A DNA stretch of 64,000 nt from Prevotella sp. (GCA_050946455.1 JBMNUV010000006.1:23504-87503), one strand, 5' to 3'. Counted from the first letter of the stretch, positions 10,761-59,700 are shown. Numbers and translations: made by a program. The notes: generated by a model from the letters alone, not told the origin.

Positions 10761-10820
10761 AATTATGCATTGTGAATTATGCATTAAAATTATGCATTGT
10801 GCATTATGCATTATGCATTA
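10761..10820. repeat. Heptamer array (AATTATG/CATTATG/CATTGTG) overlapping the birA stop
   Basis: aattatgcattgtgaattatgcatt...tatgcattgtgcattatgcattatgcatta, 7-nt period. Confidence 0.85.
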
Positions 10821-11584
10821 AAAGCGATTTCCTTGAATTCATATTCTCTTATCGCTCCTTCGCGGTCACGTAGGATGAGGTGCCCATTATCCTCCACCTC
10901 CACGATTGCCGCCTCAAACACGCCATCCTTGTCGCGGTAGCTATGGAAACCGTGTTGACGATAGAGCGAGTCGTGATAGAGGGCAGCCACGTCAGTGTAG
11001 TCGCCATTCTCAATCAGTGAGTAGCAATATTGGAAAGACTTGATGATTTCCTGCAGAAGTTGCTCACGGTCCACCTCATGGCCTAAAATCTGCAACAGCG
11101 AGACGGGATTGGGCGCATCGCTGTGGAACTCAGCTTGGTTGACGTTGAGTCCGATTCCAAAAATACAGTTGTTGATATGACCTCCCAAAACCGTTGTCTC
11201 AATGAGCGTTCCACTGAGTTTGCGGTCGTTCCAATACACATCGTTGGGCCATTTCAGCGTAATGCCATCCGTATAATTAGCGAGTGCCATCTTCAACGCG
11301 ATACCTCCCATCATGGAGAGCAGGAACTGGCGCTGCAAAGGAACCATCACCGGATGAAGCAGAATGGAAAAAGTGAGGTTCTTGCCCCGCTCACTCTCCC
11401 AAGTGTTGGTTCCCTGTCCGCGTCCGGCAGTCTGATAGTCAGCCACTGCAACAGTCATCTTCTCGCCTTCTCCAGGATGATAGGAACGCAGATAGTTGTT
11501 GGTGCTGTCCACCTCGTCCAAACGGACAATACGAACAGAATTATCCTTTTTCTTTTTTCTAAATAAAGAACTAAGCAAAGCCAT
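10811..11584 (-). CDS. birA: Biotin--[acetyl-CoA-carboxylase] ligase (no N-terminal HTH)
   Basis: VDSTNNYL, QTAGRGQGTNTWES, KWPNDVY, KLSGTLIE, GIGLNVNQ. Confidence 0.93.
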   Translation of the reverse strand: MALLSSLFRKKKKDNSVRIVRLDEVDSTNNYLRSYHPGEGEKMTVAVADYQTAGRGQGTNTWESERGKNLTFSILLHPVMVPLQRQFLLSMMGGIALKMALANYTDGITLKWPNDVYWNDRKLSGTLIETTVLGGHINNCIFGIGLNVNQAEFHSDAPNPVSLLQILGHEVDREQLLQEIIKSFQYCYSLIENGDYTDVAALYHDSLYRQHGFHSYRDKDGVFEAAIVEVEDNGHLILRDREGAIREYEFKEIAFNA

Positions 11585-11663
11585 TTAGTGATTGTTTGTT
11601 TCTATTAGGCAAAAATACCACTTTTATTTGTATTTGCAAAAGGAAAATACTATTTTTGCACGC

Positions 11664-12104
11664 ATGAAAGAAGAAGACAATGAATTCATGCGTATGGCAC
11701 TGCGCGAGGCTGAGGCAGCGATGAATGCCGGTGAAGTGCCAATCGGATGTGTGATTGTGAGCCGGGGTCGCATCATCAGTCGGGGTCACAACCTGACGGA
11801 AATGCTCCACGACGTGACGGCACACGCCGAAATGCAGGCAATCACGTCGGCAGCCGATGCCCTTGGAGGGAAATACCTTCAAGGGTGTACACTCTATGTC
11901 ACGGTGGAGCCTTGCGTGATGTGTGCCGGTGCCATAGGCTGGGCACAGCTCACTCGGCTCGTCTATGGCGCGTCAGATGAGAAGCGCGGCTATACGCAGT
12001 TCGCGCCAAAAGCCCTCCACCCCAAATGCGAGGTGACGAAAGGCGTGCTCGAAGACGAATGCCGCGAGCTCATGCTTAGGTTCTTTAAAGAAAAAAGAGG
12101 ATAA
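11664..12104 (+). CDS. tadA: Nucleoside deaminase, tRNA-adenosine deaminase TadA-like
   Basis: GEVPIGCVIV, TAHAEM, LYVTVEPCVMCAGAI (HxE...PCxxC); start ATG 11664 follows a TATTTTTG box at 11651. Confidence 0.85.
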   Translation: MKEEDNEFMRMALREAEAAMNAGEVPIGCVIVSRGRIISRGHNLTEMLHDVTAHAEMQAITSAADALGGKYLQGCTLYVTVEPCVMCAGAIGWAQLTRLVYGASDEKRGYTQFAPKALHPKCEVTKGVLEDECRELMLRFFKEKRG

Positions 12105-12109
12105 AAGAA

Positions 12110-12151
12110 AGGAGTTGTTGCGGCTCAATATATTTTACCACAACAACTCCT
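12110..12151. terminator. Bidirectional terminator between convergent genes
   Basis: AGGAGTTGTTG...CAACAACTCCT 11-bp stem. Confidence 0.65.
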
Positions 12152-12173
12152 GTCATTCTATAAACTATCTGAA

Positions 12174-13022
12174 CTACTTGACCACAATTACAAGATACTT
12201 GCTTGTGGACCAGAAATTCTGAGGATTAGTGATGCGCAATACATACTGCTTGTTGGCATCGCGCTCCAAAGTGTAGCTGCCGCTTGGATGAATAGTCTTG
12301 ATGGTAGCCGACTTAGAGTAGAGCTTGATTTCACGTGTATTGCGAATATCTATCTTCGTGAAATAATTCTTGTTGAAATTGCCACGCATCACCTTGTTGC
12401 CTTCCAAGATGCGCTGCTCACGCAATTCTTTCTTGGTGCCGAAGACATACCATGCCGTGTTGAGCAGATGGTCCTGAGTGCTGATGGTCTTGCTCTTGTC
12501 TGCGCTCTCAGTCTTAAGATTGCTCACATCCGTGTTGAGGTTGTTAATGGTCTCATCCAACTCAGAAATGTGAATATCCTTTGCATCCAACTCTTCACGC
12601 AACTGCTGCAACTGCTGGTCTTTCTCCTGCAACTGCTTGGTTAGGTTGTTGATGGTGGTCTTGAACTGGTCACCCTTAATAGAACTTGTACGGAGTTGCT
12701 CCTGCAACTTCTTGATAAGTTCACGGTTGTGAGCCATCCGCTCAGAGATAAACTTGATGTTCTCGCGGATTTGCTGTTTTTTGTTAGCACCCTCACCATC
12801 TTTGGCAATGGTGACGCGGTTCTCCGCCTCGTTTATCTGTCGGAAACCCTCCTCAATCTCGTTGAGGGTTCCCATCATATCGTTCAACTCATTGTCCTTC
12901 TGCTCAATGATTTTTGAGAGTGAATCCGTTTGAGCCGAAGTGAGGCCTTGCTGCGCCCCTTTATTGTTGCATGACGCGAAGAAGACAGCAAGCAGACATG
13001 CGAAAAATAATAGCTTTTTCAT
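12174..13022 (-). CDS. Coiled-coil lipoprotein, Cbp1-like (Prevotellaceae conserved)
   Basis: MKKLLFFACLLAVFFASC lipobox; long heptad region; C-terminal AWYVFGTKKEL...FWSTSKYLVIVVK. Start re-set to ATG 13022. Confidence 0.65.
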   Translation of the reverse strand: MKKLLFFACLLAVFFASCNNKGAQQGLTSAQTDSLSKIIEQKDNELNDMMGTLNEIEEGFRQINEAENRVTIAKDGEGANKKQQIRENIKFISERMAHNRELIKKLQEQLRTSSIKGDQFKTTINNLTKQLQEKDQQLQQLREELDAKDIHISELDETINNLNTDVSNLKTESADKSKTISTQDHLLNTAWYVFGTKKELREQRILEGNKVMRGNFNKNYFTKIDIRNTREIKLYSKSATIKTIHPSGSYTLERDANKQYVLRITNPQNFWSTSKYLVIVVK

Positions 13023-13047
13023 CTCAAATGTTTTTTTAAGTAATTTT

Positions 13048-13785
13048 TTAATAGTTTGATGATTCTCCGCTTTCAGACTCTGCGTCTTTGTCGGAGTTGA
13101 TTTTTGTCTTTGTTTTAGGAGCACCCGCTACGACGATGACAATCTCGCCTTTTGGGGGAGTCTCTTCAAAATGAGCAGCCACCTCTTCGAGCGTTCCGCG
13201 AACGTGCTCCTCGTGGACCTTTGAAATCTCACGCGCAACACTCACCTGGCGGTCGGGTCCGAAGACCTCAGCAAATTGGTGAAGCGTCTTCACGAGGCGG
13301 AATGGTGACTCATAGAACACCATGGTTCGCTGTTCGTTGCGCAGTGACTCTAAATGGCTCTGACGGCCTTTCTTCTGCGGAAGGAAACCCTCGAAACAGA
13401 ATCTGTCGCAGGGCAGCCCCGATGATACGATGGCAGGGATACAGGCTGTAGCTCCGGGAAGAGTGATGACCTCGATACCTGCGCGGGATGCTTCACGTGC
13501 TAAGTAGAATCCCGGGTCACTGATGCCGGGTGTACCAGCATCGCTGACAAGCGCAATGTTCTGTCCAGCCTTCAACCGCTCCACAACGCCCGCCGAAGTG
13601 CCATGCTCGTTGAACTTATGATGCGACATCAGATGGTTCTTGATGTCGAAGTGCTTGAGCAGCAATCCAGAGGTACGTGTGTCTTCAGCCAACACCAAAT
13701 CGGCATCTTTGAGCACACGGATGGCACGTAAGGTCATATCCTCCATATTGCCGACTGGAGTCGGCACAATGTACAATGTTCCCAT
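13048..13785 (-). CDS. rsmI: 16S rRNA (cytidine1402-2'-O)-methyltransferase
   Basis: GTLYIVPTPVGNMEDMTLRA, AEDTRTS, VSDAGTPGISDPG, FEGFLP, YESPFR, AREISKVHEE. Confidence 0.95.
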   Translation of the reverse strand: MGTLYIVPTPVGNMEDMTLRAIRVLKDADLVLAEDTRTSGLLLKHFDIKNHLMSHHKFNEHGTSAGVVERLKAGQNIALVSDAGTPGISDPGFYLAREASRAGIEVITLPGATACIPAIVSSGLPCDRFCFEGFLPQKKGRQSHLESLRNEQRTMVFYESPFRLVKTLHQFAEVFGPDRQVSVAREISKVHEEHVRGTLEEVAAHFEETPPKGEIVIVVAGAPKTKTKINSDKDAESESGESSNY

Positions 13786-14116
13786 AATACTTGGCAAATA
13801 TAGCTAATAAATCTTCTTGGACAAAAAATTATTCTAAATCTTTGCATTTTTTAAGTGTAGGGAACCTCTCAATAGCCATTTGTTTTTCTCCAAGCACCTC
13901 CAAACAGTTGTTTGAAAACAGTTATGAGAACCCCAAAGAGAACATTTAATAACTTTTTAGCTTGTTTTTTTATTATTGCTATCTTATAAACAATATGTGA
14001 ACTCCACGAATGAACAGACGCAATTTTGAAGAGAGTGCAGGCATAGGAATGATTGGAAAACATCAAGAAGTAACATCAATAACTGTTTACTTCTGAACGT
14101 GGCAGCGTTTATTTGC

Positions 14117-14206
14117 GTGTGCTGACAAGTGGCAACCAATCGGGTGGCACTTGCCACCACAACGGGTGGCACTTGGCAGCACAACGGGTGGCACCTGTCA
14201 GCACAC
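14117..14206. repeat. ~90-bp element with terminal inverted repeats and internal 22-nt tandem units
   Basis: Ends GTGTGCTGACAAGTG / CACCTGTCAGCACAC (14/15 complementary); internal CGGGTGGCAC(T/C)TG-unit x3 at 22-nt period. Confidence 0.7.
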
Positions 14207-14460
14207 GGCGGTAGCCGTATAGTGATAATACGCCATGCGGATTTTCGAATAATACTATTTGATGAAAAACGTAATTCAAACTGAACCCACTATAGAATAT
14301 AGCCTCTTGTTGCACTTATTTTTGCTATATATAATATTATAATATTATATATGGATACCTTCTTGGGAAACCAAAAGAAAACCTAAAAGAATACTCCGAA
14401 AGGGAGAGTCGTCGCCCATAGAAGCCGTTTTGGGGAAATAGAATTTATCAGATGAAAAGA

Positions 14461-14494: not shown

Positions 14495-14538
14495 GTATGA
14501 GTTATATCACTCAAGAGAAATAATTTTAATAAGGAGAA

Positions 14539-21118: not shown

Positions 21119-21127
21119 AGCGGTTAC

Positions 21128-25648: not shown

Positions 25649-25938
25649 GAGTTAGGAGGCGACAATCAGTTAGGAGTTAGGAGATAGGAGTTCTATTAAG
25701 TTAGGAGTTAGAAGATAGGAGATAGGAGTTCTATTAAGTTAGGAGTTAGGAGATAGGAGATAGGAGTTGCTGCGCCGAACACGGAAGCGAATCTAATTAT
25801 GAATTATGAATTATGAATTATGAATTAAAAGATGGGGTTGCTGCGCACCCACTGAACCTACTATACCTACTGAACCTACCAAACTCTCTGTAATAGTTAG
25901 CGAAGCTAATTATGAATTATGAATTATGAATTATGAAT
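25649..25938. repeat. Modular heptamer-array element: (GGAGTTA/GGAGATA)n - GCTGCGC linker - (AATTATG)n - CTACT/GAACCTAC module - (AATTATG)n
   Basis: Direct reading; begins just after the umuC stop; the same modules recur at 40464, 48517 and 51808. Confidence 0.85.
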
Positions 25939-27222
25939 TTATTTCAGCCGAATGATGTCGCGCCAGCGGGTGGTGGGGTTGGGACTCTTGAAGTCGTGCT
26001 TGATAATGTCGGAGAATGTTTTGCTGCCGGGAAACTGCTGGGCTGCAATGATAACCGTCTCGGGACCATTGATTTTGTTGATGCGGTCAACGGCACGGCT
26101 GAGTTGCGAAATCTTCATACGATGTTCCAGACTATCGTCAAACATATTGAGTTGCAAGGGGCGGCGCGGGGTGATGCCCATCACGATGACTCCCGCACGC
26201 TTATAGCGATAGCCCACACGGAAAAGACGGTCCAAACACTTGTCGGCTGCCTTCACAATAACCATGGTTGAGTCGGTGGGCGTGGAAAGCGGAATATCGG
26301 TCATGTTCCAATATTGTGGCAGGTCGTCGCGGAAATGGTTGGTATCAATAAACACACCGACAATCGATGCCAGCGTACCCTGCTTGCGGAGTTTCTCCGC
26401 ACAGTGGGCGGCAAAGTTGGCGATATGGGTGGCGAGCAAGCCACGGTCGGTAATCATTCCATCAAAGGAGCGGCTTACGCACATATTGCGCCGCCACGTC
26501 ACCTGCTCATCTGGCACACAATCCTCGCCATTCAGCTCGCGCCATGTCCGTTCTATCACGATGTTGTGGAATGTCAGTCGCAGCCAAGCGCAACTATGCG
26601 CAGCAAAGTCCCACGCAGTATTCACCTGCATCGCCTCCAAGCGTTTGCCATAGCGACGTCCGATGCCCCATACCTCATCTATGGGAAAGAGCCGCAGAGC
26701 CTTGCGACGCTTCTCCTCACTGTCAATGAGGCATACGTGGTTGTATCCCTTATAGTGTTTGGCAAAGTGGCTTGCCATCTTCGCCAGCGTCTTGGTGGGC
26801 GCAATGCCGATACTCACAGGCATACCCACACTGCGCAGAATACGGTCGTGAAGGTCATGTGCCCAATCGGATAGTTGTTCACGGGTGAAGCCGTCAAGCA
26901 CGCAGAACGCCTCGTCAATGCTATAGCGGAAGTACTTCGGTGCCATCTGACGGATGATGCTCATCACACGACCTGTAATCTCGCCATATAACTCATAGTT
27001 GCTGGAGAATACGGCTATCTTCACACCGGGAAAGAGAGTCGCCAACTGGAAATAGGGCGTACCTGCCTTAATGCCCAAGCGCTTTGCCTCGGCACTTCTT
27101 GCCACGACGCAGCCATCGTTGTTGCTCAACACAACAACGGGCTTGCCTTCGAGGTCGGGGCGGAACACGCGCTCACAACTCACGTAGCAGTTGTCACAAT
27201 CACAGATGGCGTAGTATTTCAT
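25939..27222 (-). CDS. umuC: Y-family DNA polymerase V catalytic subunit (UmuC-like)
   Basis: [61 protein letters not shown]-terminal [11 protein letters not shown]. Confidence 0.9.
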
Positions 27223-34608: not shown

Positions 34609-34777
34609 AAGTTTCGCAAGTTTGCAACTTGCTCACTTCAAAGGAGTTAGGAGGAGTCAAAGGAGTTATAGGAGTTAAAGACAACAGTGCTGAAGGGTAT
34701 CAGAATCCTTCAATAGTAATGTCTTAACTCCTTTGACTCCTTTTAACTCCTTTGACTCCTCCATAAATGCGAAAGTT
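34609..34777. repeat. ~170-bp hairpin element (MITE-like), copy 1
   Basis: Ends AAGTTTCGCA / TGCGAAAGTT; arms of GGAGT(C/T)AAA and TTT(G/A)ACTCC units around GCTGAAGGGTATCAGAATCCTTC; near-identical copy at 54167-54337. Confidence 0.8.
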
Positions 34778-38676: not shown

Positions 38677-39326
38677 GAACAATATCCGTCGTGTAGTCGC
38701 ATCTCACGGAGGTCCCGTCGCTCCGCGCGGGACGACATCCGACAATACAATTCAAAAGTAATAAAACGTTCAGATAATCATTATTACATATAATATATAG
38801 GGTCAACTTTGGCAGTCGTCCCGCGCGGAGCGACATCCGACAACACAATTCAAAAGTAATAAAACGTTCAGATAATCATTATTACATATAATATATAGGG
38901 TCAACTTTGGTCGTCGTCCCGCGCGGAGCGACGGGACCTCCATGCTTCGCGGGACGACATCCGTCAATAACCAACATCTTACTCCGCTCGTAGTTCTCGC
39001 GCTCCGCGCGGGAACAATATCCATCCCGTAGCCGCAACTCACGGAGGTCTCGCGCTCCGCGCGGGACGACATCCGACAACACAATTCAAAAGTAATAAAA
39101 CGTTCAGATAATCATTATTACATATAATATATAGGGTCAACTTTGGCAGTCGTCCCGCGCGGAGCGACGGGACCTCCATGCTTCGCGGGACGACATCCGT
39201 CAATACAAATAAATACTATTCCAAATTAATAAAGACCACGGGCATCCCTTATTACCTATAATAATATTGGGTCAACTTTGGCAGTCGTCCCGCGCGGAGC
39301 GACGGGACCTCCATGCTTCGCGGGAC
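38677..39326. repeat. REP/REPIN-like array: GC-rich palindromic units alternating with a 78-nt AT-rich spacer
   Basis: 46-nt unit GTCGTCCCGCG...CGCGGGACGAC at 38913 and 39149 (43 nt at 39284); reverse or partial units at about 38708, 38815, 38997 and 39043; near-identical 78-nt spacers at 38737, 38835 and 39071, plus a diverged 89-nt spacer at 39195. Confidence 0.85.
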
Positions 39327-39354: not shown

Positions 39355-39448
39355 GGATTGAGCGACAATTGTCGACATGCATGTCGGCAATTGTCAACGA
39401 GTTTGTCGGCAATTGTCAACGAGTTTGTCGACAATTGTCGCTCAATCC
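39355..39448. repeat. 94-bp element with perfect 23-bp terminal inverted repeats and 22-nt internal units
   Basis: GGATTGAGCGACAATTGTCGACA / TGTCGACAATTGTCGCTCAATCC; internal TGTCGGCAATTGTCAACGAGTT units; same family at 54045-54136 in the opposite orientation. Confidence 0.8.
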
Positions 39449-39736: not shown

Positions 39737-40483
39737 ATGAGAAAGTTTTGTTTACGTATTCATCGTTGGCTCGCCATCCCCTTGGGCTTGTTTATCTCGC
39801 TCATCTGTTTTTCTGGTGCCATCATGGTGTTTCAGGATGAGATTGCCAACTACATTCTTGGAGTTGAATATTCCCACGACGTTCCATTCTTCATGGCGAT
39901 AAGACAGTTACACCGCTTCCTGTTTGATGTCCCTGCTGATTTACGCAGTGGCTATACGGTGGGACGCGTCATCGTACTGCTGTCCGCTATCGGCATGTCG
40001 CTCATCCTTCTTTCGGGCATCGTCATTTGGTGGCCCCGAAACAAGAAGATGCTCCGCAACCGCCTGACCGTTCATTTCAACAAGGGCTGGCGGCGATTGG
40101 TCTATGACTCCCATGTATCACTCGGCATCTATGCTTTTGCTTTCCTGTTGCTCATGTCGCTCACGGGTCCTGTGTTCTCCGCATGGAAACCCTATCGGCA
40201 AGCAGCACTGGTCGTCACCCAAAGACAAGAGAACCCGTTACAAGGAAAAGCTCGGCAAGCTGAAGTTGCCACGCGTGAGAATCCGCATGTGGATTTCAAC
40301 CATCACACAGGCGTCAACCCGACACAGTTTTTCTTCATGAGTTGGCATACCGGACGCTGGGGCGGGCTCCTTACCCGCATTATCTATTGTTTGGCAGCCA
40401 TCATCGGTGGACTGATGCCTTGGAGCGGATATTATATCTGGTGGAAAAAGAGAAAGGCAAAGAAGTTAGGAATTAGGAGATAG
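39737..40483 (+). CDS. PepSY-associated TM-helix inner-membrane protein (XusC-like)
   Basis: RIHRWLAIPLG..I...CFSGA, QLHRFL, SGIVIWWP, YDSHVSLGIY, WHTGRWGG, SGYYIWW; the conserved His residues are typical of PepSY_TM reductase-like proteins. Confidence 0.85.
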   Translation: MRKFCLRIHRWLAIPLGLFISLICFSGAIMVFQDEIANYILGVEYSHDVPFFMAIRQLHRFLFDVPADLRSGYTVGRVIVLLSAIGMSLILLSGIVIWWPRNKKMLRNRLTVHFNKGWRRLVYDSHVSLGIYAFAFLLLMSLTGPVFSAWKPYRQAALVVTQRQENPLQGKARQAEVATRENPHVDFNHHTGVNPTQFFFMSWHTGRWGGLLTRIIYCLAAIIGGLMPWSGYYIWWKKRKAKKLGIRR

Positions 40484-40672
40484 GAGCAATTTGAGTTAGG
40501 AGTTAGTAGATAGGAGTTAGGAGTTCTGCGCCCCCACTATACTTACCGAACCTACTACACCTACCGTACTCCTTCTGATAGTGCGCAGCTAATTATGCAT
40601 TGTGCATTATGCATTATGCATTATAAAAGGCGCGCAGCGAATTATGAATTATGAATTGTGAATTATGAATTA
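40464..40672. repeat. Modular heptamer-array element overlapping the PepSY gene stop
   Basis: (GGAGTTA/GGAGATA)n - CTGCGCC - ACCTACTAC module - GCGCAGC - (CATTATG)n - GCGCGCAGC - (AATTATG)n. Confidence 0.85.
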
Positions 40673-48516: not shown

Positions 48517-48672
48517 GAGTTAGGAATTAGGAGATAGGAGTTATTTCGAGTTAGGAGTTAGGAAATAGGAGATAGGAGTTGCTGCGCCCCTAATTATGCA
48601 TTATGCATTGTGCATTATGCATTATAAAAGCGCGCAGCCAATTATGCATTATGCATTGTGCATTATGCATTA
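48517..48672. repeat. Modular heptamer-array element
   Basis: (GGAGTTA/GGAGATA)n-GCTGCGCCCC-(CATTATG)n-GCGCGCAGCC-(CATTATG)n. Confidence 0.85.
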
Positions 48673-48859: not shown

Positions 48860-50275
48860 ATGGTAGAGACTATTCAAAGGAAATTGAGCGACTCCGCAGC
48901 ATGGCGGTGGACAGCTCTCGTGCTATTGGCTACGGCCATGTTTTTTGGTTACATCTTCGTTGACATCCTTTCACCGCTGAAAGACCTTCTTCAAATTCAG
49001 CGCGGATGGGACTCCAACGCTTTCGGTCATTATGCCGGTTCTGAGCCCTTCCTCAACGTGTTCGTGTTCTTCCTCATCTTCGCAGGTATCATCCTCGACA
49101 AGATGGGCGTGCGCTTCACGGCTATCCTCTCAGGTACGGTGATGGTGATTGGTGCCAGCATCAACTGGTTTGCCGTGACTGACTCCTTCGAAACCAGTAG
49201 TTTAAAGACTTTCATGGACGGTATTCTCAACCTTCCCCCCGCGTGGTGGAATATCACACCGTGGTATGAGGGAATGCCCGCCTCAGCCAAGTTGGCAGCC
49301 ATCGGTTTCATGATTTTCGGTTGCGGTACTGAAATGGCAGGTATTACCGTGAGCCGCGGTATCGTGAAATGGTTCACAGGTCACGAAATGGCATTGGCAA
49401 TGGGTGTGGAGATGGCTATCGCCCGTGTGGGTGTGGCTGTGGTGATGATTGGCGCTCCTGTCGTTGCCCACATTACTCCCGTCAGCGTTTCCCGTCCTGT
49501 TGCATTCTCGTTGGCTCTGCTCTGCATCGGATTGATGTGCTTCATCACCTACGGTTTCATGGATAAGAAACTCGAAGCACAAGGTGCAACCGAACAGAAA
49601 GACGACCCCTTCAAGGTAAAGGATATCGGCAAGATTCTGTCGCTGAAGATGTTCTGGATTGTAGCTTTGCTTTGCGTGCTCTACTATTCCGCTATCTTCC
49701 CCTTCCAGAAGTACGCTATCAACATGCTGCAGTGCGACCTCGGCTTCACTGCTGAGCAAGCCGGACTGGTATTCTTCGTATTCCCATTGGGAGCTGCAGC
49801 CATCACCCCGTTCCTTGGCAACTATCTCGACCATAAGGGTAAGGGTGCATCCATGATGATTCTCGGTGCCATCCTGATGATTGTCTGCCACCTGACGTTC
49901 GCCTTCATTGTGCCCGCCACCCAGTCGGTCATCATCACCTATCTTGCCATCATCCTCTTGGGTATCTCCTTCTCACTGGTTCCCGCAGCCATGTGGCCTT
50001 CAGTTCCGAAACTCATCGACAACAAACTCCTCGGAAGTGCCTACGCTCTGATATTCTGGATTCAGAACATCGGTCTCTATGCCTTCCCAATGATTATCGG
50101 TAGTGTGCTGACGGCTTGCAACCCTGGTGTCACAGACCCGACCAAGCTCGACTACACCGTGCCCATGTGCCTCTTCGCAAGCCTCGGCGCTGTAGCTTTC
50201 ATCCTCGGCATCTATCTGAAGATACTCGACAAGAAGGGTGGCTACGGACTGGAAGAACCGAACATCAAATCATAA
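48860..50275 (+). CDS. MFS transporter
   Basis: About 12 hydrophobic segments; GIILDKMGVR, SLVPAAMWPSVPK. Confidence 0.9.
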   Translation: MVETIQRKLSDSAAWRWTALVLLATAMFFGYIFVDILSPLKDLLQIQRGWDSNAFGHYAGSEPFLNVFVFFLIFAGIILDKMGVRFTAILSGTVMVIGASINWFAVTDSFETSSLKTFMDGILNLPPAWWNITPWYEGMPASAKLAAIGFMIFGCGTEMAGITVSRGIVKWFTGHEMALAMGVEMAIARVGVAVVMIGAPVVAHITPVSVSRPVAFSLALLCIGLMCFITYGFMDKKLEAQGATEQKDDPFKVKDIGKILSLKMFWIVALLCVLYYSAIFPFQKYAINMLQCDLGFTAEQAGLVFFVFPLGAAAITPFLGNYLDHKGKGASMMILGAILMIVCHLTFAFIVPATQSVIITYLAIILLGISFSLVPAAMWPSVPKLIDNKLLGSAYALIFWIQNIGLYAFPMIIGSVLTACNPGVTDPTKLDYTVPMCLFASLGAVAFILGIYLKILDKKGGYGLEEPNIKS

Positions 50276-50304
50276 TGCATAATGCACAATGCATAATGCA
50301 TAAT
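50271..50304. repeat. Heptamer array (CATAATG)n starting at the MFS stop
   Basis: cataatgcataatgcacaatgcataatgcataatt. Confidence 0.8.
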
Positions 50305-50446
50305 TACTGCAGGATGCTTGAAGCATAATAAAGATGCAGACAATTCTTATTGCCTTCACAATTAATATTCAATAATTCAAGGAGGCCACGCGTTCCATGA
50401 TGAATGGGTGCGGGGTCTCCTTTTGCTATTTATAAATTCTCTATCA

Positions 50447-51817
50447 ATGACAGCAAAGACAAAACGGTGGACGGTGCTGCTTGCCGTCTCACTGGTCATG
50501 ATGATGGGCTATGTGTTCTGGGATATCGTGTCGCCTGTCTCTACCCAACTCAAGGCACCGCTCTCAGAAGGAGGAATGGCATGGACTGCGGCTGAATACG
50601 GATTCTACGCGGGCAGCTACAGCATCTTCAACATCTTTTTCCTCATGCTGTTCTTCGGCGGCATCATCCTCGACCGCTGCGGCATCCGCATCACGGGACT
50701 TCTCGCCACAGGTTCCATGCTCTTAGGCGCTGCTGTCAACGCGTGGGCTATCACCCACATCAGTCCCACAACGATGGTCGACATGCCTTTCACTCTTTTC
50801 GGCATCATACCCGAGCAGTTGAAGACTCAAGTGTTGGTCGCCGCCTTGGGATTTGGTTTTTTCGGAATGGGCTGCGACATCACGGGTATCACCGTCTCGA
50901 AGATTGTCACCAAATGGTTCAAAGGTAAGGAACTTGCCTCCGCCATGGGCGTGCAGGTAGCATTGGCGCGGTTGGGCACAGCCTCAGCATTGAGCCTCAG
51001 TCCACTGCTTGCCCAGACATGGGGACTCCCCTCGCCCATCATCGCCGGCACGCTGTTGCTGTTAGTGGGATTCGTTATCTTCGTGGGCTATTGTTTTGCA
51101 GACAAACACTTTGACGAGCACGAGCCGGAAGTGTTTGAGGAGAAGGCAACCAACGACGAGCCTTTCCGTTGGCACGACTTCACGGCTTTGCTGCGCAATC
51201 CCAGTTTCTGGCTTATCGCTTTGCTCTGCGTGAGCTATTACAGCAGCATCCGACCGTTTATGAAATTCGCCACCGACCTCTTGGTAAACAAATACCACGC
51301 CGACGCGCTCACCGCGGGTTGGCTCGTGAGCATCATTCCCTACGGAAGCATTGTGCTCACTCCCCTATTCGGCATGCTCTACGACCGTATCGGACGTGGC
51401 GTCTCACTGATGCTCATTGGCTCAGCCATGCTCACAGCCGTACACGTTTGCTTCGCACTGCCGATTGCATGGAGCGGGACCGCCGCCATTGTACTGATGG
51501 TGATATTGGGAATCGCGTTCTCGTTAGTACCAAGCGCGTTGTGGCCTTCTGTGCCGAAGATAGTTCCTCTGAAACAACTCGGCACAGCCTACAGCATCAT
51601 CTATTATATACAGAATATCGGACTGATGCTCGTGCCCATGATTGTGGGCGGTGTGCTGAAAGACGATACGACTGCCGGTGTGCCCGTCTTCACACGCACC
51701 ATGTGGATATTCGCCGCCTTCGGATTGGCTGCAGTTGTGTTCGCCATCGTCATGCTCATCGCTGAACGCAAGAACCACTATGGTCTGGAGGAAGCAAACA
51801 TAAATCCTAATGCATAA
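50447..51817 (+). CDS. MFS transporter (tandem paralogue)
   Basis: GIILDRCGIR, GCDITGITVSKIVTKWF, SLVPSALWPSVPK; collinear with the upstream MFS. Start ATG 50447. Confidence 0.9.
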   Translation: MTAKTKRWTVLLAVSLVMMMGYVFWDIVSPVSTQLKAPLSEGGMAWTAAEYGFYAGSYSIFNIFFLMLFFGGIILDRCGIRITGLLATGSMLLGAAVNAWAITHISPTTMVDMPFTLFGIIPEQLKTQVLVAALGFGFFGMGCDITGITVSKIVTKWFKGKELASAMGVQVALARLGTASALSLSPLLAQTWGLPSPIIAGTLLLLVGFVIFVGYCFADKHFDEHEPEVFEEKATNDEPFRWHDFTALLRNPSFWLIALLCVSYYSSIRPFMKFATDLLVNKYHADALTAGWLVSIIPYGSIVLTPLFGMLYDRIGRGVSLMLIGSAMLTAVHVCFALPIAWSGTAAIVLMVILGIAFSLVPSALWPSVPKIVPLKQLGTAYSIIYYIQNIGLMLVPMIVGGVLKDDTTAGVPVFTRTMWIFAAFGLAAVVFAIVMLIAERKNHYGLEEANINPNA

Positions 51818-51975
51818 TGCACAATGAATAATTCATAATGCACAATGCATAATTAAACTATCGTATGTTTGGTGAAGTCAGAATGAGTTAGGAGATAGGA
51901 GTTGTGTCGCCGAACACGAGGGCGAAGCCAACTATGCATTATGCATTATGCATTATGCATTGTGCATTATGCATT
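51808..51975. repeat. Two inverted heptamer arrays around a GGAGATAGGAGTT-GCCGAACACG module, between convergent genes
   Basis: (TAATGCA)n...GAGTTAGGAGATAGGAGTTGTGTCGCCGAACACG...(CATTATG)n; the GCCGAACACG module also occurs near 25774. Confidence 0.8.
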
Positions 51976-51982
51976 ATTAGTG

Positions 51983-52693
51983 CTATAGCTTCAGTTTCTC
52001 CACCGTCATTCCATTCACACAACGGTTGAGGTCCACCCGTGTGGGAATACCGTTTATCATCCCGCGCTCGGTGAACTGCCAAATATTCACTTTTCCCTTT
52101 CCACGAATCCGTGGGCAACCTTTGCTATACTTAGCCAAGAAAAGATAATAGCGGTTGAAAGTCGGGGCTAAGCATTCATTATAATATTTGTATTGGGAAT
52201 AGATAACCGGCGACTTACCGTAGTAGTCGGTCATGAGTTGGATGATTTTCTTCAGATTGCGACGCACTTCCTTCTGACTCCAATGGCGCATCGCCTCTCG
52301 CTCCACGTCAATGACGGGGCGCAAGTCCTGCTGACTTTTTTTCGCCACGCGCTTGAAAGCATCAAACTGAGCCTGAACCGATGAGGAAGAGGAGAAATAG
52401 AGATAGGCACCACAGAGAATGCCATGCCTGCGCGCATGGGTGTTGTTATATTTGTAGCGGTCGTCAACAATGGTAGCTCCCTGCGTGGCCTTGATATACA
52501 CAAACCTCACATCGCCGCTCCGTGCCACGCGCTTCCAGTCGATTCGTCCTTGATAATGAGACACGTCGATGCCCTGAAACCAAGAAGAGGGTTTCTTTTG
52601 TTTCTTCTTGGTTTTTGCCATGCCCACGAGCGAGCCTCCCAAAAGAGCCACGACGAGGCAACAGACAACTATGAGGATAGGGTTACGCTTCAT
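51983..52693 (-). CDS. GH25 muramidase (lysozyme), exported
   Basis: GIDVSHYQG.IDW, FVYIKATQG, GAYLYF, PVIDVE, WQFT..G.I.GI...VDLN. Confidence 0.9.
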   Translation of the reverse strand: MKRNPILIVVCCLVVALLGGSLVGMAKTKKKQKKPSSWFQGIDVSHYQGRIDWKRVARSGDVRFVYIKATQGATIVDDRYKYNNTHARRHGILCGAYLYFSSSSSVQAQFDAFKRVAKKSQQDLRPVIDVEREAMRHWSQKEVRRNLKKIIQLMTDYYGKSPVIYSQYKYYNECLAPTFNRYYLFLAKYSKGCPRIRGKGKVNIWQFTERGMINGIPTRVDLNRCVNGMTVEKLKL

Positions 52694-54044: not shown

Positions 54045-54136
54045 GATTGTGCGACAATTGCCGACAAACTCGTTGACAATTGCCGACAAACTCGTTGACA
54101 ATTGCCGACAAACTCATTAACAATTGTCGCTCAATC
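54045..54136. repeat. 92-bp TIR element with 22-nt internal units (same family as 39355-39448)
   Basis: GATTGTGCGACAATTG / CAATTGTCGCTCAATC ends; GACAATTGCCGACAAACTCGTT x3-4. Confidence 0.8.
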
Positions 54137-54166: not shown

Positions 54167-54337
54167 AACTTTCGCAAGTTTGCAACTTGCTTATTTCTAA
54201 GGAGTTAAAAGGAGTCAAAGGAGTCAAAAGGAGTCAAAGACAATAGTGCTGAAGGGTATCAGAATCCTTCTATAGTAATGTCTTTAACTCCTTTGACTCC
54301 TTTTAACTCCTTTGACTCCTCCATAAATGCGAAAGTT
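54167..54337. repeat. ~170-bp hairpin element (MITE-like), copy 2
   Basis: AACTTTCGCA...TGCGAAAGTT ends; same core and right arm as 34609-34777. Confidence 0.8.
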
Positions 54338-55360: not shown

Positions 55361-56383
55361 ATGGGATTATTTTCTTTCATTCAAGAAATAGCAATGGACC
55401 TTGGCACAGCCAACACCATCATTATCAGCGATGACAAGATAGTCGTTGACGAGCCTTCGGTTGTGGCTCTCGACCGCCGTACCGACAAGATGATTGCCGT
55501 GGGCGAGAAAGCCAAGATGATGTATGAGAAAACGCACGACAACATCAAGACCATCCGTCCGCTGCGCGACGGAGTCATCGCCGACTTCACTGCGTGCGAG
55601 CAGATGATGCGCGGACTTATCAAGATGGTGCACACGGGAAGCCGCTTCTTCTCCCCGTCACTGCGTATGGTCATCGGTGTGCCGTCGGGCTCTACCGAGG
55701 TGGAACTGCGTGCTGTGCGCGACTCTGCCGAGCATGCCGACGGACGCGATGTCTATCTCATCTTTGAGCCTATGGCTGCGGCAATCGGCATTGGTATTGA
55801 CGTGGAGGCTCCCGAAGGCAATATGATTGTCGACATCGGCGGTGGCTCTACTGAGATAGCAGTCATCTCGCTGGGTGGTATCGTGAGCAACAACTCCATC
55901 CGAATTGCCGGTGACGACTTGACTGCCGATATACAAGAATACATGAGCCGCCAGCACAACGTGAAGGTTTCGGAGCGTATGGCTGAGCGCATCAAGATTC
56001 ATGTTGGCTCCGCCCTCACCGACCTTGGCGACGAGGCTCCAGAGGACTACGTGGTACACGGTCCTAACCGTATCACCGCCCTGCCCATGGAAGTGCCCGT
56101 ATGCTATCAGGAGATTGCCCATTGTCTCGACAAGACGGTGGCTAAAATTGAAAACGCAGTGCTCTCAGCGTTGGAGAACACGCCGCCTGAGCTATATGCC
56201 GACATCGTGAAGAACGGCATCTACCTCACCGGTGGTGGCGCTCTGCTCCGTGGACTGGACAAGCGCCTACATGATAAAATCAATATTCCGTTCCATATTG
56301 CCGAAGACCCGCTCCACAGTGTGGCAAAGGGTGCTGGCGTGGCACTGAAAAACGTAGACCGCTTCTCCTTCCTGATGAGATAG
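55361..56383 (+). CDS. mreB: Rod shape-determining protein MreB
   Basis: DLGTANT, EPSVVA, RPLRDGVIADF, VDIGGGSTE, LTGGGALLRG. Confidence 0.97.
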   Translation: MGLFSFIQEIAMDLGTANTIIISDDKIVVDEPSVVALDRRTDKMIAVGEKAKMMYEKTHDNIKTIRPLRDGVIADFTACEQMMRGLIKMVHTGSRFFSPSLRMVIGVPSGSTEVELRAVRDSAEHADGRDVYLIFEPMAAAIGIGIDVEAPEGNMIVDIGGGSTEIAVISLGGIVSNNSIRIAGDDLTADIQEYMSRQHNVKVSERMAERIKIHVGSALTDLGDEAPEDYVVHGPNRITALPMEVPVCYQEIAHCLDKTVAKIENAVLSALENTPPELYADIVKNGIYLTGGGALLRGLDKRLHDKINIPFHIAEDPLHSVAKGAGVALKNVDRFSFLMR

Positions 56384-56397
56384 AGTGACCGTGTTAT

Positions 56398-57267
56398 ATG
56401 AGAAATCTCTTAGAATTTCTTGCCAAATATAACCACTGGTTTCTTTTCGTCTTTCTGGAGGTTGTCAGCTTTGTCCTGCTGTTCCAATACAACAGTTATC
56501 AGGGCAGCGTATGGTTCTCTTCAGCCAATGCAGTGGCGGGAAAAGTCTACGATTGGGATGCCAAAGTGGAAACTTTCTTCTCGCTCACCAAGGTGAACGA
56601 GCAACTCAATCAGCGCAACCTCTTTTTGGAGCAACAAGTGAGACTGCTACAGGACTCAATAGCCGCGCTCAGTGGTGACAGCACCGCCACTAAAGGCGGT
56701 CAGTTAGCACAACTGCAAGACTATAAGCTCATTCCCGCCAAGGTGGTTCACAACACGCTTGACCAAGCCGACAACTTCATCACCATCGACAAGGGTTACA
56801 CCGACGGTGTGCGCAAGGACATGGGTGTGGCATGCGGCATGGGTGTTGTGGGCATCGTGTATATGGTAGCCAGCCACTATTCGGTGGTCATCCCCGTTCT
56901 TAACACTCAATCGAGTATCAGTTGTATGATTCAAGACCGGGGCTATTTCGGCTATCTGCGCTGGTATGGCAACGACCCGTCGTGGGCTTTGCTTGAAGAT
57001 ATTCCGCGCCATGCGCATTTCCGACTCTACGAGAACGTGGTGACAAGTGGTTATTCATCTGTCTTCCCACCCGGAATCTTGGTGGGAAAGATTCAGCATG
57101 TATATAACTCACCCGACGGTCTCGCCTATCGGCTGATGGTGAGGCTGTCAACCGACTTTGGCAAGTTGCGCGATGTATGCGTCATTGACAACTCAGCTAT
57201 CAGTGAGCGCATCGAGATTTTACGCGCATCACAGGATTCACTCAAACTTCAACAGAACAATCAATAA
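56398..57267 (+). CDS. mreC: Rod shape-determining protein MreC
   Basis: N-terminal TM, coiled coil, ITIDKG..DGV, VVTSGYS.VFPPGI.VG. Confidence 0.93.
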   Translation: MRNLLEFLAKYNHWFLFVFLEVVSFVLLFQYNSYQGSVWFSSANAVAGKVYDWDAKVETFFSLTKVNEQLNQRNLFLEQQVRLLQDSIAALSGDSTATKGGQLAQLQDYKLIPAKVVHNTLDQADNFITIDKGYTDGVRKDMGVACGMGVVGIVYMVASHYSVVIPVLNTQSSISCMIQDRGYFGYLRWYGNDPSWALLEDIPRHAHFRLYENVVTSGYSSVFPPGILVGKIQHVYNSPDGLAYRLMVRLSTDFGKLRDVCVIDNSAISERIEILRASQDSLKLQQNNQ

Positions 57268-57279
57268 TAAAGGTATCGC

Positions 57280-57780
57280 ATGAACATAGATTTGCTCAAA
57301 GGCTTCGCTCTTTTTGTAATTCTGCTGCTGGTGCAAGTGGTCTTTCTCAACCACATCCACCTATTCGGCTTCGCTACACCTTTATTATATATGTATATGG
57401 CGATTATCTTTCGCCGCAATTATCCGCGTTGGGGCATTCTCCTATGGTCTTTCGCCATGGGACTTGCCGTGGATATCTTCTCCAACACGCCTGGAATGGC
57501 GGCTGCGTCGATGACATTGCTCGGTTTTATACAGCCCTACATCCTGTTACCCTTCACCAACCGCGACACACCCGAGGACTTTGAGCCGTCGCTGCGCCAG
57601 ATGGGACCAAGCAAGTTTCTGTTGTACGCTACCATCTGCGTATTCATCTATTGCCTCGTGTTCTTCACCATCGAAGATTTCAGCTTTTTCAATCCCCTGT
57701 ATTGGATAAGCAGCATCATCGGCAGTTCCCTGCTGACGCTCATCTTCGTCTTGGTGATTGAGAATTTCAGGAGCAAATAG
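57280..57780 (+). CDS. mreD: Rod shape-determining protein MreD
   Basis: Hydrophobic 166 aa between mreC and mrdA; GLAVDIFSNTPG. Confidence 0.88.
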   Translation: MNIDLLKGFALFVILLLVQVVFLNHIHLFGFATPLLYMYMAIIFRRNYPRWGILLWSFAMGLAVDIFSNTPGMAAASMTLLGFIQPYILLPFTNRDTPEDFEPSLRQMGPSKFLLYATICVFIYCLVFFTIEDFSFFNPLYWISSIIGSSLLTLIFVLVIENFRSK

Positions 57781-57784
57781 GCCT

Positions 57785-59635
57785 ATGAAAGATTTCAACT
57801 TGGAAAACCGGAGCCTCATTATTGGCGGTATCGCGGTCACAATCGTGTTCGTGTATATCGTCAGGCTCTTTGCGCTCCAGCTTGCCAGTGATGACTATAA
57901 GAAGAACGCCGACTCCAACGCCTTCCTCAAGAAGATAGAATTCCCCTCGCGAGGCACCATCTCCGACCGCAACGGTGAGCTGATGGTCTATAATCAACCC
58001 AGCTATGACATTATGGTAGTGATGAACGAGGAGAAAGGGCGCCTTGATACGACGGAGTTCTGCAACGCCATCGGCATTACCAAGGAATATTTCATCCATC
58101 GGATGGAAGAAATCAAAGACCGCAACAAGAACCCCGGCTACTCACGTTTTACTCAGCAGCTTTTCATGAGTCAGATGTCGGACCGCGAGTACAGCGTGTT
58201 TCGCGAGAAGATGTTCCGCTTTCCGGGATTCTACGTCCAAAAGCGCAGCATCCGCCAGTACCAATATCCGTATGCGGCACACGTTTTGGGTGATGTGGGT
58301 GAGGTGTCGGAGGCGGACATCGAAAAAGACAACTATTATCAGCCTGGCGACTATATCGGAAAACTCGGTGTTGAAAAATCCTATGAGAAAGACCTGCGTG
58401 GCGAGAAAGGAGTGCAGATTCTCCTTCGAGACGCGCACGGAAGAATTCAGGGACGATATCAGAACGGCAAATACGACCGAAAGCCTGTGCCGGGGCGTGA
58501 CCTTACGTTGGGCATCGACCTCAAATTGCAGGCACTCGGCGAGCGCATGATGGAGGGCAAGATTGGTGCCATCGTCGCCATTGAGCCATCCACGGGAGAA
58601 GTGCTCTGCATGGTTTCGTCGCCCAGCTACGACCCACGGATGATGGTGGGACGCCAACGCGGACGCAACCACCGCATCTTGTCCCACGATGGGTGGAAGC
58701 CTCTGCTCAACCGTGCCATCATGGGACAGTATCCGCCAGGCTCTACGTTCAAGACTACGCAGGCGCTGACCTATCTCTCCGAAGGAATCATCACGCCACA
58801 CACCATGTTCCCCTGCCACCACGGATTCTACTACCGCGGACTCCATGTGGGCTGTCACGGACACGCGTCGCCCTTGGCGTTGACCGAGGCGATTTCAACT
58901 TCGTGCAACGGTTACTTCTGCTGGGGACTCTATTATATGATGTCCAACAGACGCAAATACAAGAATGTGCAGCAAGCCATGAACACATGGCGCGACTACA
59001 TGGTGAGCATGGGCTTCGGCTATAAATTGGGAATCGACCTGCCGGGCGAGAAACGTGGACTCATCCCGAATGCAGAGTTCTACGACAATGCCTACAACGG
59101 CTCTTGGAACGGTCTGACCGTCATCTCCATTGCCATCGGACAGGGAGAGGTCAACCTCACGCCACTCCAGATAGCCAACCTCGGCGCTACCATCGCCAAC
59201 CGTGGCTACTATTATGTGCCTCACGTGGTAAAGGCTGTTAGCGGCCGCAGTCTCGATTCCACCTACACAAGGCGCCACTACACACGTGCCGAGCCTTGGG
59301 CTTACCGCTGGGTAGTAGATGGTATGCGCTCATCAGCCCTCAAGGGAACCTGCAAGGCACTGCGCAACCTACCGTTCGAAGCATGTGGAAAGACGGGTAC
59401 TGCCCAGAACCGTGGTCACGACCACTCTGTATTCATGGGTTTCGCCCCGATGAATGAGCCTAAAATCGCCATCGCCGTGTATGTGGAGAACGGTGGATTT
59501 GGAGCCGACTTCGCAGTGCCTATCGCCAAGGTGCTCTTTGAGCAATACATCACGGGGCACCTCTCCAAGTCAGCAGAATCAGATGCCGCCGCTTTGCAGC
59601 ACCGCAGAATCGGCTACGGAGATAGCAGCAGGTAA
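57785..59635 (+). CDS. mrdA: Penicillin-binding protein 2
   Basis: TM anchor, PSRG.I.DRNG, GKLGVEKSYE, YPPGSTFK, SCN, KTGT. Start ATG 57785. Confidence 0.94.
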   Translation: MKDFNLENRSLIIGGIAVTIVFVYIVRLFALQLASDDYKKNADSNAFLKKIEFPSRGTISDRNGELMVYNQPSYDIMVVMNEEKGRLDTTEFCNAIGITKEYFIHRMEEIKDRNKNPGYSRFTQQLFMSQMSDREYSVFREKMFRFPGFYVQKRSIRQYQYPYAAHVLGDVGEVSEADIEKDNYYQPGDYIGKLGVEKSYEKDLRGEKGVQILLRDAHGRIQGRYQNGKYDRKPVPGRDLTLGIDLKLQALGERMMEGKIGAIVAIEPSTGEVLCMVSSPSYDPRMMVGRQRGRNHRILSHDGWKPLLNRAIMGQYPPGSTFKTTQALTYLSEGIITPHTMFPCHHGFYYRGLHVGCHGHASPLALTEAISTSCNGYFCWGLYYMMSNRRKYKNVQQAMNTWRDYMVSMGFGYKLGIDLPGEKRGLIPNAEFYDNAYNGSWNGLTVISIAIGQGEVNLTPLQIANLGATIANRGYYYVPHVVKAVSGRSLDSTYTRRHYTRAEPWAYRWVVDGMRSSALKGTCKALRNLPFEACGKTGTAQNRGHDHSVFMGFAPMNEPKIAIAVYVENGGFGADFAVPIAKVLFEQYITGHLSKSAESDAAALQHRRIGYGDSSR

Positions 59636-59638
59636 CAA

Positions 59639-59700
59639 TAATGCACAATGCACAATTCATAATGCATAATTCACAATGCATAATGCATAATTGGCTGCGC
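59639..59700. repeat. Heptamer array (TAATGCA/CAATGCA)n ending in GGCTGCGC
   Basis: Directly after the mrdA stop. Confidence 0.8.

Follow-up and report, generated by a model that had tools for sequence, protein, structure and literature searches.

Dispersed heptad-array modules at gene ends in a Prevotella genome: probable gene-less derivatives of four-helix-bundle cassettes

The window analyzed here, a stretch of 64,000 nucleotides of Prevotella sp. DNA, carries arrays of 7-nt units at seven intergenic sites, which raises the question of what kind of element they represent. An earlier note had taken them for one dispersed element and had pointed to heptamer arrays flanking four-helix-bundle (TIGR02436-type) genes in Bacteroidota. 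Based on Tandem Repeats Finder and direct reading, all seven sites were recovered (Table 1), and the GC linkers and CTAC-rich module of the long copies were present in the order described for them. Two kinds of module were distinguished, A ([A/C]ATT[A/G]TG) and B (GGAG[T/A]TA).

Table 1. Array features in the window (window coordinates) and arrays around TIGR02436 genes elsewhere in the genome (contig coordinates).
Feature	Coordinates	Strand	Composition or context
Hairpin and two A+ modules	10726..10820 (array 10761-10820)	+	GC hairpin GTCGCTGTAATGCAGCGAC..., then A+ of 26 and 33 nt
Long composite	25649..25939	+	3x B+, GCTGCGCC...GCGAA hairpin, A+ 25795-25827, GCTGCGC, CTAC module 25847-25882, GCGAAGC, A+ 25908-25939
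Gene-less F foldback	34640..34762		arms GGAGT[C/T]A, period 9-10, ~47-nt loop
Long composite	40462..40672	+	B+, B+, CTGCGCC, CTAC module 40532-40567, GCGCAGC, A+ 40591-40623, GCGCAGC linker, A+ 40640-40672
Composite	48517..48672	+	B+ B+, GCTGCGC stem around A+ 48592-48624, GCGCAGC, A+ 48640-48672
Solo A module	50271..50305	-	A- in the sense of gene 48860-50275
Gene-less foldback	51808..51977		A- array; loop of short B+ and GTGTCGCC...GGCGAAGC hairpin; A+ array
Gene-less F foldback	54198..54322		second in the window
Long A array and linker half	59638..59700 (array 59638-59692)	-	54-nt A-, then GGCTGCGC linker half
A-/A+ arms	C19:3417-3740		around TIGR02436 gene
B+/B- arms	C5:120794-121120		around TIGR02436 gene, here a pseudogene
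F+/F- arms (9-10-nt period)	C24:47917-48228		around TIGR02436 gene
Degenerate array pair	C17		around TIGR02436 gene

A scan of the whole 3.65-Mb genome revealed 463 A and B modules in 215 loci, and these two unit families account for nearly all of the approximately 380 period-7 arrays. Modules have a fixed length of near 33 nt, equivalent to five cores: 183 of 281 A modules are exactly 33 nt long, and a 31-34-nt peak holds 190/372, with a sharp drop above 34 and a few long arrays of 54-89 nt. Identical master 33-mers occur in 33, 20 and 17 copies, their internal variant patterns recurring. The modules are ordered as B(0-3), a GCTGCGCC/GGCG(A/C)AGC hairpin and (A + linker)n, with B always before A, and the hairpin loop of a composite may carry an A module or a CTAC module of 9-nt period. 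The linkers GCTGCGC(C), GCG(C/A)AGC and CCGAACACG are conserved between modules, and the spacers from A to A, mostly 13-18 nt, each correspond to a conserved linker. These motifs are strongly associated with arrays. Of the 239 occurrences of GCTGCGCC, 121 have a module no more than 100 nt away, a zone that covers about 3% of the genome, while for two control octamers the counts were 0/71 and 0/69; the full hairpin (14/14) and the CTAC module (45/52) are likewise found near modules. The fixed length, the identical master copies and the conserved linkers together indicate a dispersed element rather than independent microsatellites, as the earlier note had argued. A CRISPR-like reading, which would call for unique spacers of similar length between fixed repeats, was rejected because the spacers here are themselves conserved linkers. 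The GC hairpin was also considered as an intrinsic terminator and discarded, since visual inspection showed no U tract after it in either orientation. A tRNA scan of the window found nothing.

A stop codon is abutted or overlapped at six of the seven sites, the exception being the composite at 48517, which lies between divergent genes. The first B+ module of the 40462 composite contains the stop of gene 39737-40483, the long A- array at 59638 begins 3 nt past the stop of gene 57785-59635, in whose sense it reads, and the A end of the 25649 composite overlaps the stop of minus-strand gene 25939-27222. The second A+ module at 10726..10820 ends over the stop of a minus-strand gene, 10811-11584, which therefore reads A- after its stop. 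At the foldback the stop of gene 50447-51817 lies inside the A- array, and minus-strand gene 51983-52693 has its stop facing the A+ array. Genome-wide, 40 of 103 elements lie within 5 nt of a stop codon, compared with 3.9 expected (p about 7e-30). Thus neither of the outcomes named beforehand as contrary evidence, linkers dissociated from arrays or array positions random relative to gene ends, was seen. Of the gene 3' ends facing a module, about one quarter have their stop codon overlapped by the element, which hence supplies it, sometimes together with the last codons. Gene 48860-50275 takes its last codon and TAA stop from the A array; many of its orthologues end in ...PNIK with the stop directly after.

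Solo modules placed after a stop are strongly polar in the sense of the gene (B+ 24:2, A- 42:2). The polarity was repeated in nine other species, where A- was favored 22:7 after stops and A+ 19:4 before starts, although the gene calls are crude ORF calls and distances to start codons are therefore unreliable. In 80 metagenome loci all five modules conformed, a number too small to carry weight. The exceptions to the rule were not explained by cassette arms, as their neighbours are ordinary host genes. The polarity may reflect the direction of insertion; it may instead reflect selection, since the C-rich and G-free B- would serve as a Rho loading site and A+ is rich in AUG and free of stops.

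Five TIGR02436 genes were identified in the genome, none of them in the window, in agreement with the earlier note. Four of the five are bracketed by inverted arrays, which bears out the proposed association for this genome. For A, B and F the dispersed repeat unit is the same as the inverted arms of a TIGR02436 gene in this genome. A congener carries an intact B-armed gene, with arms of 33 and 32 nt, whose two co-oriented host neighbours we read as nusA and infB. The position and polarity of the dispersed modules match the orientation of such gene-bearing cassettes between host genes. Among the 80 proteins most closely related to the A-armed one, which come from many phyla and share 51-66% identity with it, about 65 have period-7 arrays on both sides. 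With a stricter array detection 42 of these 80 could be scored on both sides, and in 40 of the 42, representing 19 different heptads, the two arms are reverse complements of each other with at most one mismatch; about 12 would be expected with shuffled partners. Arm length in the cross-phylum relatives has the same 31-34-nt peak (55/100) as the dispersed modules. Of the family genomes, 25 carry the A 25-mer and 21 of these have an A-type protein, compared with 56 of the 275 that lack it, a figure that is partly trivial because the arms travel with the gene and in which the compared genomes are also related.

We consider it probable that the seven sites are copies of a genome-wide, non-coding and non-autonomous modular family built from the ~33-nt arms of TIGR02436/S23p (23S-rRNA-IVS-type) cassettes, and we read the family as cassette derivatives hugely amplified in this genome. 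A complete cassette consists of a left arm, a small four-helix-bundle gene and an inverted right arm, set between co-oriented host genes directly past the upstream stop codon. The seven sites would be its gene-less forms: solo arms, one empty foldback and chimeras of B-left and A-right arms joined through a GC hairpin. The ORF-bearing 23S intervening sequences of Coxiella, Leptospira and Xanthomonas (S23p) share the TIGR02436 protein family with these elements and likewise have terminal inverted repeats that form a long stem with the gene in its loop. In Coxiella the 5' arm holds tandem heptamers and the stem is cut by RNase III (PMC4990558); by analogy, paired arms here may form RNase III-type stems. 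The elements described here differ from those sequences in lying between protein-coding genes and not in rRNA, and in being present in hundreds of copies, nearly all gene-less and most of them direct chimeras.

Several observations weigh against the cassette reading. Most copies are direct B-to-A composites and not inverted pairs, and B modules are abundant although the B-type gene is a pseudogene. Moreover, the decay of cassettes cannot by itself account for 215 loci against four to five genes, and some copying process must be assumed; gene-less copies might be propagated in trans, or through copying and recombination. The suggestion of the earlier note that the arrays could be empty or non-autonomous derivatives therefore needs qualification: the sites are indeed gene-less, but only 51808-51977 is a true empty foldback, the other six being solo arms or direct B-to-A composites, and the direction from cassette to module is presumed. 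The foldback has a predicted RNA stem of -70.4 kcal/mol (z -7.2); two direct composites fold no more stably on the + strand than shuffled sequences do (z -1.8 and 0.0). Two gene-less F foldbacks, both inverted pairs and both absent from the original list of sites, were found in the window, and that at 34640 has the same arms and 3' tail as those bracketing the four-helix-bundle gene on C24. Genome-wide the F family numbers 16 gene-less foldbacks against one gene-bearing copy. A MITE would combine terminal inverted repeats with a target-site duplication. The foldback forms have inverted ends; no target-site duplication was evident at the one site whose orthologues define an empty state, and no transposition intermediate was seen.

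A different explanation, which we regard as rather unlikely, is that the modules are host-serving elements of 3'-UTRs and operon junctions, comparable to REP/BIME or BOX, which act in the transcript of the upstream gene and whose sequences the cassettes merely borrow or share. Their role might lie in protecting the transcript from 3' exonucleases, in insulating translation, in avoiding or modulating Rho, or in providing a site for a host RNA-binding protein. The tight placement against stop codons and the strong sense polarity are in its favor, as are the stops that direct reading of the units gives in all three frames of B+, B- and A-. The heptamers of Xanthomonas and Nostoc, too, are sense-strand repeats located within 50 bp of a stop, and most of them are transcribed (PMC4692102). 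The constant order and variable number of modules recall the mosaic composites of BIME and BOX, from which the present elements differ in being tandem heptads and not GC-rich palindromes. A host function fits poorly with the rapid turnover. In the nearest relative, represented by the best metagenome contig (94% protein identity), two of three shared sites carry other repeat families, including a different repeat at 48517, and in other species yet other arrays follow the stop of the orthologues of gene 48860-50275. The A 25-mer occurred in only 2 of 16 congeners sampled, and when 4.8 kb of the window was searched against congeners, DNA identity was at most about 76%; these relatives show the turnover and are too distant for exact insertion boundaries. 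Some copies lie in divergent promoter regions (48517), and an Rfam scan of the window at the gathering threshold gave no matches. Host service also leaves unexplained the co-varying arms around four-helix-bundle genes.

The closest described kind, the STRR/LSSR/GGGAATC/TAACTGA class of dispersed heptanucleotide tandem repeats, comprises the GGGAATC and TAACTGA heptamer families together with the STRR of cyanobacteria. GGGAATC and GGGGA(C/T)T have been published for Xanthomonas and Nostoc (PMC4692102), and TAACTGA for Beggiatoaceae, cyanobacteria and some Bacteroidetes (PMC4679880). These families share with ours intergenic 7-nt units at hundreds of loci, a patchy phylogeny, a preference for about four full units, a position near or over stop codons on the sense strand and frequent inverted pairs. 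The units described here are AT-rich or of GGAG type, and GC hairpin linkers join them in a fixed grammar; the link to a four-helix-bundle gene was not made in PMC4692102 or PMC4679880. Structural repeats of non-B DNA or G-quadruplex type, as proposed for GGGAATC, would make the preference for about four units a structural requirement. The position rules and unit numbers agree with that proposal (PMC4692102), B modules have regularly spaced GG doublets, and the C-type A modules are quasi-palindromic (ATGCAT) and self-fold. We nevertheless judge it improbable. The A units have no G run, so that a G-quadruplex cannot apply to them, and yet their lengths are the most sharply quantised; the G runs of B are no more than GG doublets, short of the G tracts of a G-quadruplex; and in other phyla arms made of 19 different heptads keep the same 31-34-nt length.

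The modules might also be cargo of the REP/RAYT (Y1 transposase) system of the genome, moved with REP palindromes. A Y1_Tnp-type gene on C17 has GC-rich REP palindromes on both sides, the REP core occurs 512 times, including seven copies at window positions 38719-39290, and REP-like sequence precedes a few A modules. Only 4 of 511 REP cores, however, have an A or B module within 100 nt, fewer than the ~3% background would give, which largely refutes this system as the driver and makes the idea very improbable; the RAYT-like gene is flanked by REPs and not by heptad arrays, and the modules do not form palindromic hairpins headed by GTAG. The true REP/RAYT system is thus separate from the heptad modules, although the arrangement is alike in that one or a few genes are flanked by an inverted repeat otherwise dispersed in hundreds near gene 3' ends; the protein associated with the modules is a 120-aa helical bundle with no known transposase fold. 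A reverse transcriptase was rejected, as one partial RVT_1 match on a tiny contig had no link to arrays. Independent microsatellites arising by replication slippage in place at AT-rich gene ends, for which a few long arrays and the 7-nt period, cited in PMC4679880 as the commonest long simple-repeat class in bacteria, could be adduced, are refuted by the length distribution and shared linkers, besides the identical variant patterns in dozens of copies and the same A 25-mer in eight genera, and are scarcely credible.

The four-helix-bundle protein may itself be the reader of the arms. We know of no catalytic or sequence-specific nucleic-acid-binding activity in the four-helix-bundle family. TRAP-type ring proteins bind evenly spaced RNA repeats, and a similar correspondence of one repeat to each subunit of a toroidal homo-oligomer, five cores to a pentamer, may be hypothesized here, as an analogy only, since the fold is unrelated and no membership is claimed. 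The homologues of the protein in PDB 2RLD (E 1e-36) and 2GSC have five chains each, and a Xanthomonas homologue was reported as a homopentameric toroid (PMC4990558). On single-stranded RNA or DNA, each subunit would then read one heptad core of an arm. More tentatively still, and with doubt outweighing confidence, 23S-IVS/Avd four-helix-bundle proteins could in general be sequence-specific readers of heptad arrays, a pentamer per ~33-nt module and one "word" per paralogue, in a REP/RAYT-like partnership of one gene with hundreds of gene-less sites that generates the heptamer repeats after stops in Bacteroidota, cyanobacteria, Xanthomonas and sulfur bacteria.

To our knowledge, the dispersed heptamer repeats of cyanobacteria, Xanthomonas and sulfur bacteria have no agreed origin or function. 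The present genome is an extreme and unusually clean case, with 215 loci and three array families, each with a matching four-helix-bundle cassette. Its repeats are fixed-length modules with a grammar and not slippage products, and the preference for four to five units, being found also in AT-rich units, is not a G-quadruplex requirement. In annotation, it should be considered that modules can supply the stops and last codons of genes. The unexplained heptamer repeats of bacteria gain a testable protein partner, and a descriptive puzzle becomes a set of bench questions on the stoichiometry of protein-module binding, RNase III cleavage, Rho and translation.

The modular heptad repeats are a real, abundant and structured family. 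Heptamer arrays were present at all seven window sites at which the earlier note had read them from sequence alone. Two unit families were defined, A ([A/C]ATT[A/G]TG) and B (GGAG[T/A]TA), "+" denoting the strand with this reading. The source genome is a 3.65 Mb draft (47.6% GC) in which the window lies on contig C6. A 7-nt periodicity scan revealed about 380 period-7 arrays, almost every one of them A or B, and a pattern-based census of the whole genome found 463 modules in 215 loci, the modules amounting to 14.9 kb and the loci spanning 24.6 kb. Exactly 33 nt was the length of 183 of the 281 A modules, i.e. four heptads and a last partial unit ending ATTA, giving five cores; B modules peaked at 32-34 nt. 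By an independent self-similarity measure 190 of 372 arrays measured 31-34 nt, with a steep fall above. Three master A 33-mers were found in 33, 20 and 17 identical copies, with variant positions in a fixed pattern. Oriented loci carry B (zero to three modules) first and A (zero to five) second, the opposite order occurring essentially never.

At the B-A junction GCTGCGCC ... GGCG(A/C)AGC[C/T] form a stem of 8 bp. The loop consists of a short sequence of GAACACGAG type in about 30 of 89 cases (the 26-nt linker); it can also be a CTAC-rich 9-nt-period array, an A module or a variant of 47 nt. A-A joints mostly comprise a 13-18-nt linker with the 3' end GGCGCAGC[C/T]. The linkers had been expected to accompany arrays genome-wide, and this was found: a module was no more than 100 nt away from 51% of GCTGCGCC occurrences, from 14 of 14 full hairpins and from 87% of CTAC arrays, compared with about 3% of the genome so placed and 0% for two control octamers. 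The linker motifs are thus tied to the arrays and not independent of them. The length distribution, together with linkers common to the copies, excludes an origin of the modules by slippage.

Most arrays were also said to start at or near stop codons, and this was confirmed. Using crude ORF-based gene calls, in which stop positions are reliable and start positions unreliable, 103 loci were considered that lie between genes of the same orientation and have 60 nt or more of free space. In 40 of them the upstream stop was at most 5 nt away where 3.9 were expected (p ~7e-30), and only six had the next start within 5 nt. Among gene 3' ends facing an element, 35% were no more than 5 nt away and 25% overlapped it. 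In the commonest layout at A- ends (21 cases) the gene stop is the array's first TAA, lesser peaks having the stop one and two heptads deeper in the array. At the 50271 site the array adds one codon and a TAA; many orthologues read ...PNIK and stop at once. Five window genes have a stop, and some also their last residues, supplied by the repeat. Solo modules within 30 nt past a stop are, in the sense of the abutting gene, B+ (24:2) or A- (42:2), and those ahead of starts A+ (14:3). The A polarity recurs in 59 loci of nine other species (A- 22:7 past stops, A+ 19:4 ahead of starts), and the genes at polarity exceptions are ordinary ones. Composites of the form B+...A+ obey the polarity rule either way round, which fits their near-equal strand use (71 vs 63).

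Five TIGR02436 matches (four-helix-bundle genes) were identified in the genome, none of them inside the window, as the earlier note had claimed. Its statement that heptamer arrays flank such genes is true here, inverted arrays lying on both sides of four of the five; each such cassette consists of a left arm, the gene and an inverted right arm. From ORF reading, the neighbours of the C17 gene look like fumarate reductase/succinate dehydrogenase flavoprotein and iron-sulfur subunits, normally one operon. An orthologue of the C5 gene (67% identity) is intact in a congener, where it has B arms of 33 and 32 nt and its neighbours are two co-oriented host genes, read as nusA and infB. The F family comprises 92 arms genome-wide, 16 gene-less foldbacks with a loop constant at about 47 nt, and one gene-bearing copy. 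The A-type counterpart of an empty F foldback is found at 51808-51977 (dG -70.4 kcal/mol, z -7.2).

Cassettes and other repeat features of the source genome (window coordinates unless a contig is given)
Feature	Position	Arms or units	Gene
C19 cassette		A- / A+	intact
C5 cassette		B+ / B-, GCTGCGCC past left arm	pseudogene, internal TAA
C24 cassette		F (GGAGT[C/T]A, period 9-10)	intact
C17 cassette (L001)	C17:18949-19269	degenerate arm pair	four-helix-bundle gene, intact
Gene-less foldbacks	34640-34762; 54198-54322	F	
Repeat-supplied stops	40462-40483; 50271-50275; 51808-51817; 10811-10820; 25939		five window genes
Palindrome-flanked gene	C17:29600-30900	GC-rich palindromes (GTAGTTCTCGCGCTCCGCGCGGGAACA type), both sides	Y1_Tnp-type
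Cluster of seven REP cores	38719-39290	CGCTCCGCGCGG	between divergent genes
Tandem 22-nt units	39363-39440; 54052-54126	GACAATTGTC-type palindrome	
Tandem 22-nt units	14141-14205	GGTGGCACTTGCCA	
Tandem duplicate, 74-nt unit	59736-59877	GTTGCTGTATCACAGCAAC hairpin in each copy	

Over 580 relatives of the C19 protein were found in one-genome-per-species contigs, the best 80 of which, with 51-66% identity, belong to Bacteroidota, Clostridia, Selenomonadaceae, Planctomycetota, Myxococcota, Fibrobacter, Elusimicrobia and others. In about 65 of these 80 a period-7 array precedes the gene and the complementary array follows it. The arms usually touch the four-helix-bundle gene and the adjoining host genes alike, and the host neighbours are co-oriented with it by 53:15 upstream and 59:4 downstream. 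Under stricter array detection 42 of the best 80 were scorable on both sides, and in 40 of them, with 19 different heptads, the right unit was the reverse complement of the left (at most one mismatch); about 12 matches were expected from shuffled partners, so that a change in one arm is accompanied by a change in the other. In these relatives the arms are most often 31-34 nt long, as in this genome. In three Firmicutes (L029, L039 and L051; two Clostridia/Acutalibacteraceae and one Selenomonadaceae) the cassette lies just upstream of a gene whose beginning resembles the ATP synthase beta subunit, which suggests recurrent use of one operon junction. The 25-nt core of the A module, with 137 copies here, has 1-13 copies in 25 of 300 other family genomes, across eight genera including the source genome's own (2 of 16 sampled congeners); the reversed 25-nt control had no occurrences. 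A C19-type protein is encoded by 21 of the 25 genomes with this core and 56 of the 275 without it, a comparison of related genomes that is partly trivial since the arms travel with the gene.

The modules are modular copy-and-paste units which land at stops with sense polarity and share identity with the cassette arms. In the nearest available relative, in which the protein of the 48860-50275 gene is 94% identical, the 48517 site carries a different palindromic 22-nt array (CGTGACANTTGTCACG), similar to the tandem 22-nt units of the window, the 50271 site a 9-nt-period array past the stop, and the 51808 site an A- module of another subtype. More distant congeners have other inverted arrays right past the 50271-site stop, one with the GGCTGCGCC motif. 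Different array families therefore reuse the same landing spots. No target duplication was seen, including at one site where orthologues define the empty state, and the sole reverse transcriptase match in the genome was a fragment. A host function of the REP, BIME or BOX kind is possible and compatible with the module polarity, but agrees poorly with the turnover and the arm co-variation. The Y1_Tnp gene of C17 and its palindromes are a classical REP/RAYT system, with 512 REP cores in the genome; as driver of the modules it was rejected, only 4 of 511 cores lying near an A or B module and the two systems being spatially separate. A G-quadruplex explanation, as put forward for Xanthomonas repeats, is inapplicable to A.

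Other repeats share this landscape. The 22-nt palindromic arrays look like sites of a dimeric DNA-binding protein, and the duplicated 74-nt unit (84% identity) immediately follows the A array at 59638. Families with a 9-10-nt period (CTCCGAGNN, AGTCAGACG/GACCAGTCC and GCTATAGNN, for example) often lie 3' of B modules genome-wide, as in solo B 3' flanks, and also occur in post-stop positions of relatives (e.g. L106:4520-4680).

The copy-and-paste modules may be read by a pentamer of the four-helix-bundle protein. Five chains are present in the PDB entry of each of two homologues, 2RLD (E 1e-36) and 2GSC, and a Xanthomonas homologue was reported as a "homopentameric toroid" (PMC4990558); together with five cores per module this suggests one core per subunit. 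Alternatively, the needs of a stem may fix the module length, 33 bp being about three RNA duplex turns. By likeness to the Coxiella IVS, which has heptamers in its 5' arm (PMC4990558) as the cassettes do here, the paired arms are putative RNase III substrates. Read directly, C-type A+ contains AUGs and zero stops in any frame, and A- has stops in every frame within 21 nt. C-rich, G-free RNA has the character of a Rho loading site; B- RNA would be of this kind, and the polarity may thus be selective.

Dispersed heptamer families were described previously, as TAACTGA repeats (PMC4679880) and, in a second paper, as GGGAATC and GGGGA(C/T)T repeats with a preference for four units, stop-proximal on the sense strand, in inverted pairs and transcribed (PMC4692102). 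The modules here resemble the latter in unit preference, sense-strand placement near stops and inverted pairing. A term search of both papers gave no mention of four-helix-bundle genes, and in the literature found, that gene family is mentioned only in passing or in connection with DGR and IVS. Because genome-wide about one quarter of module-facing gene 3' ends obtain their stop from the repeat, the annotation of C-termini and the alignment of orthologues are affected. The value of the family is as a clean model in which heptamer repeats of the dispersed kind are joined to a candidate partner protein.
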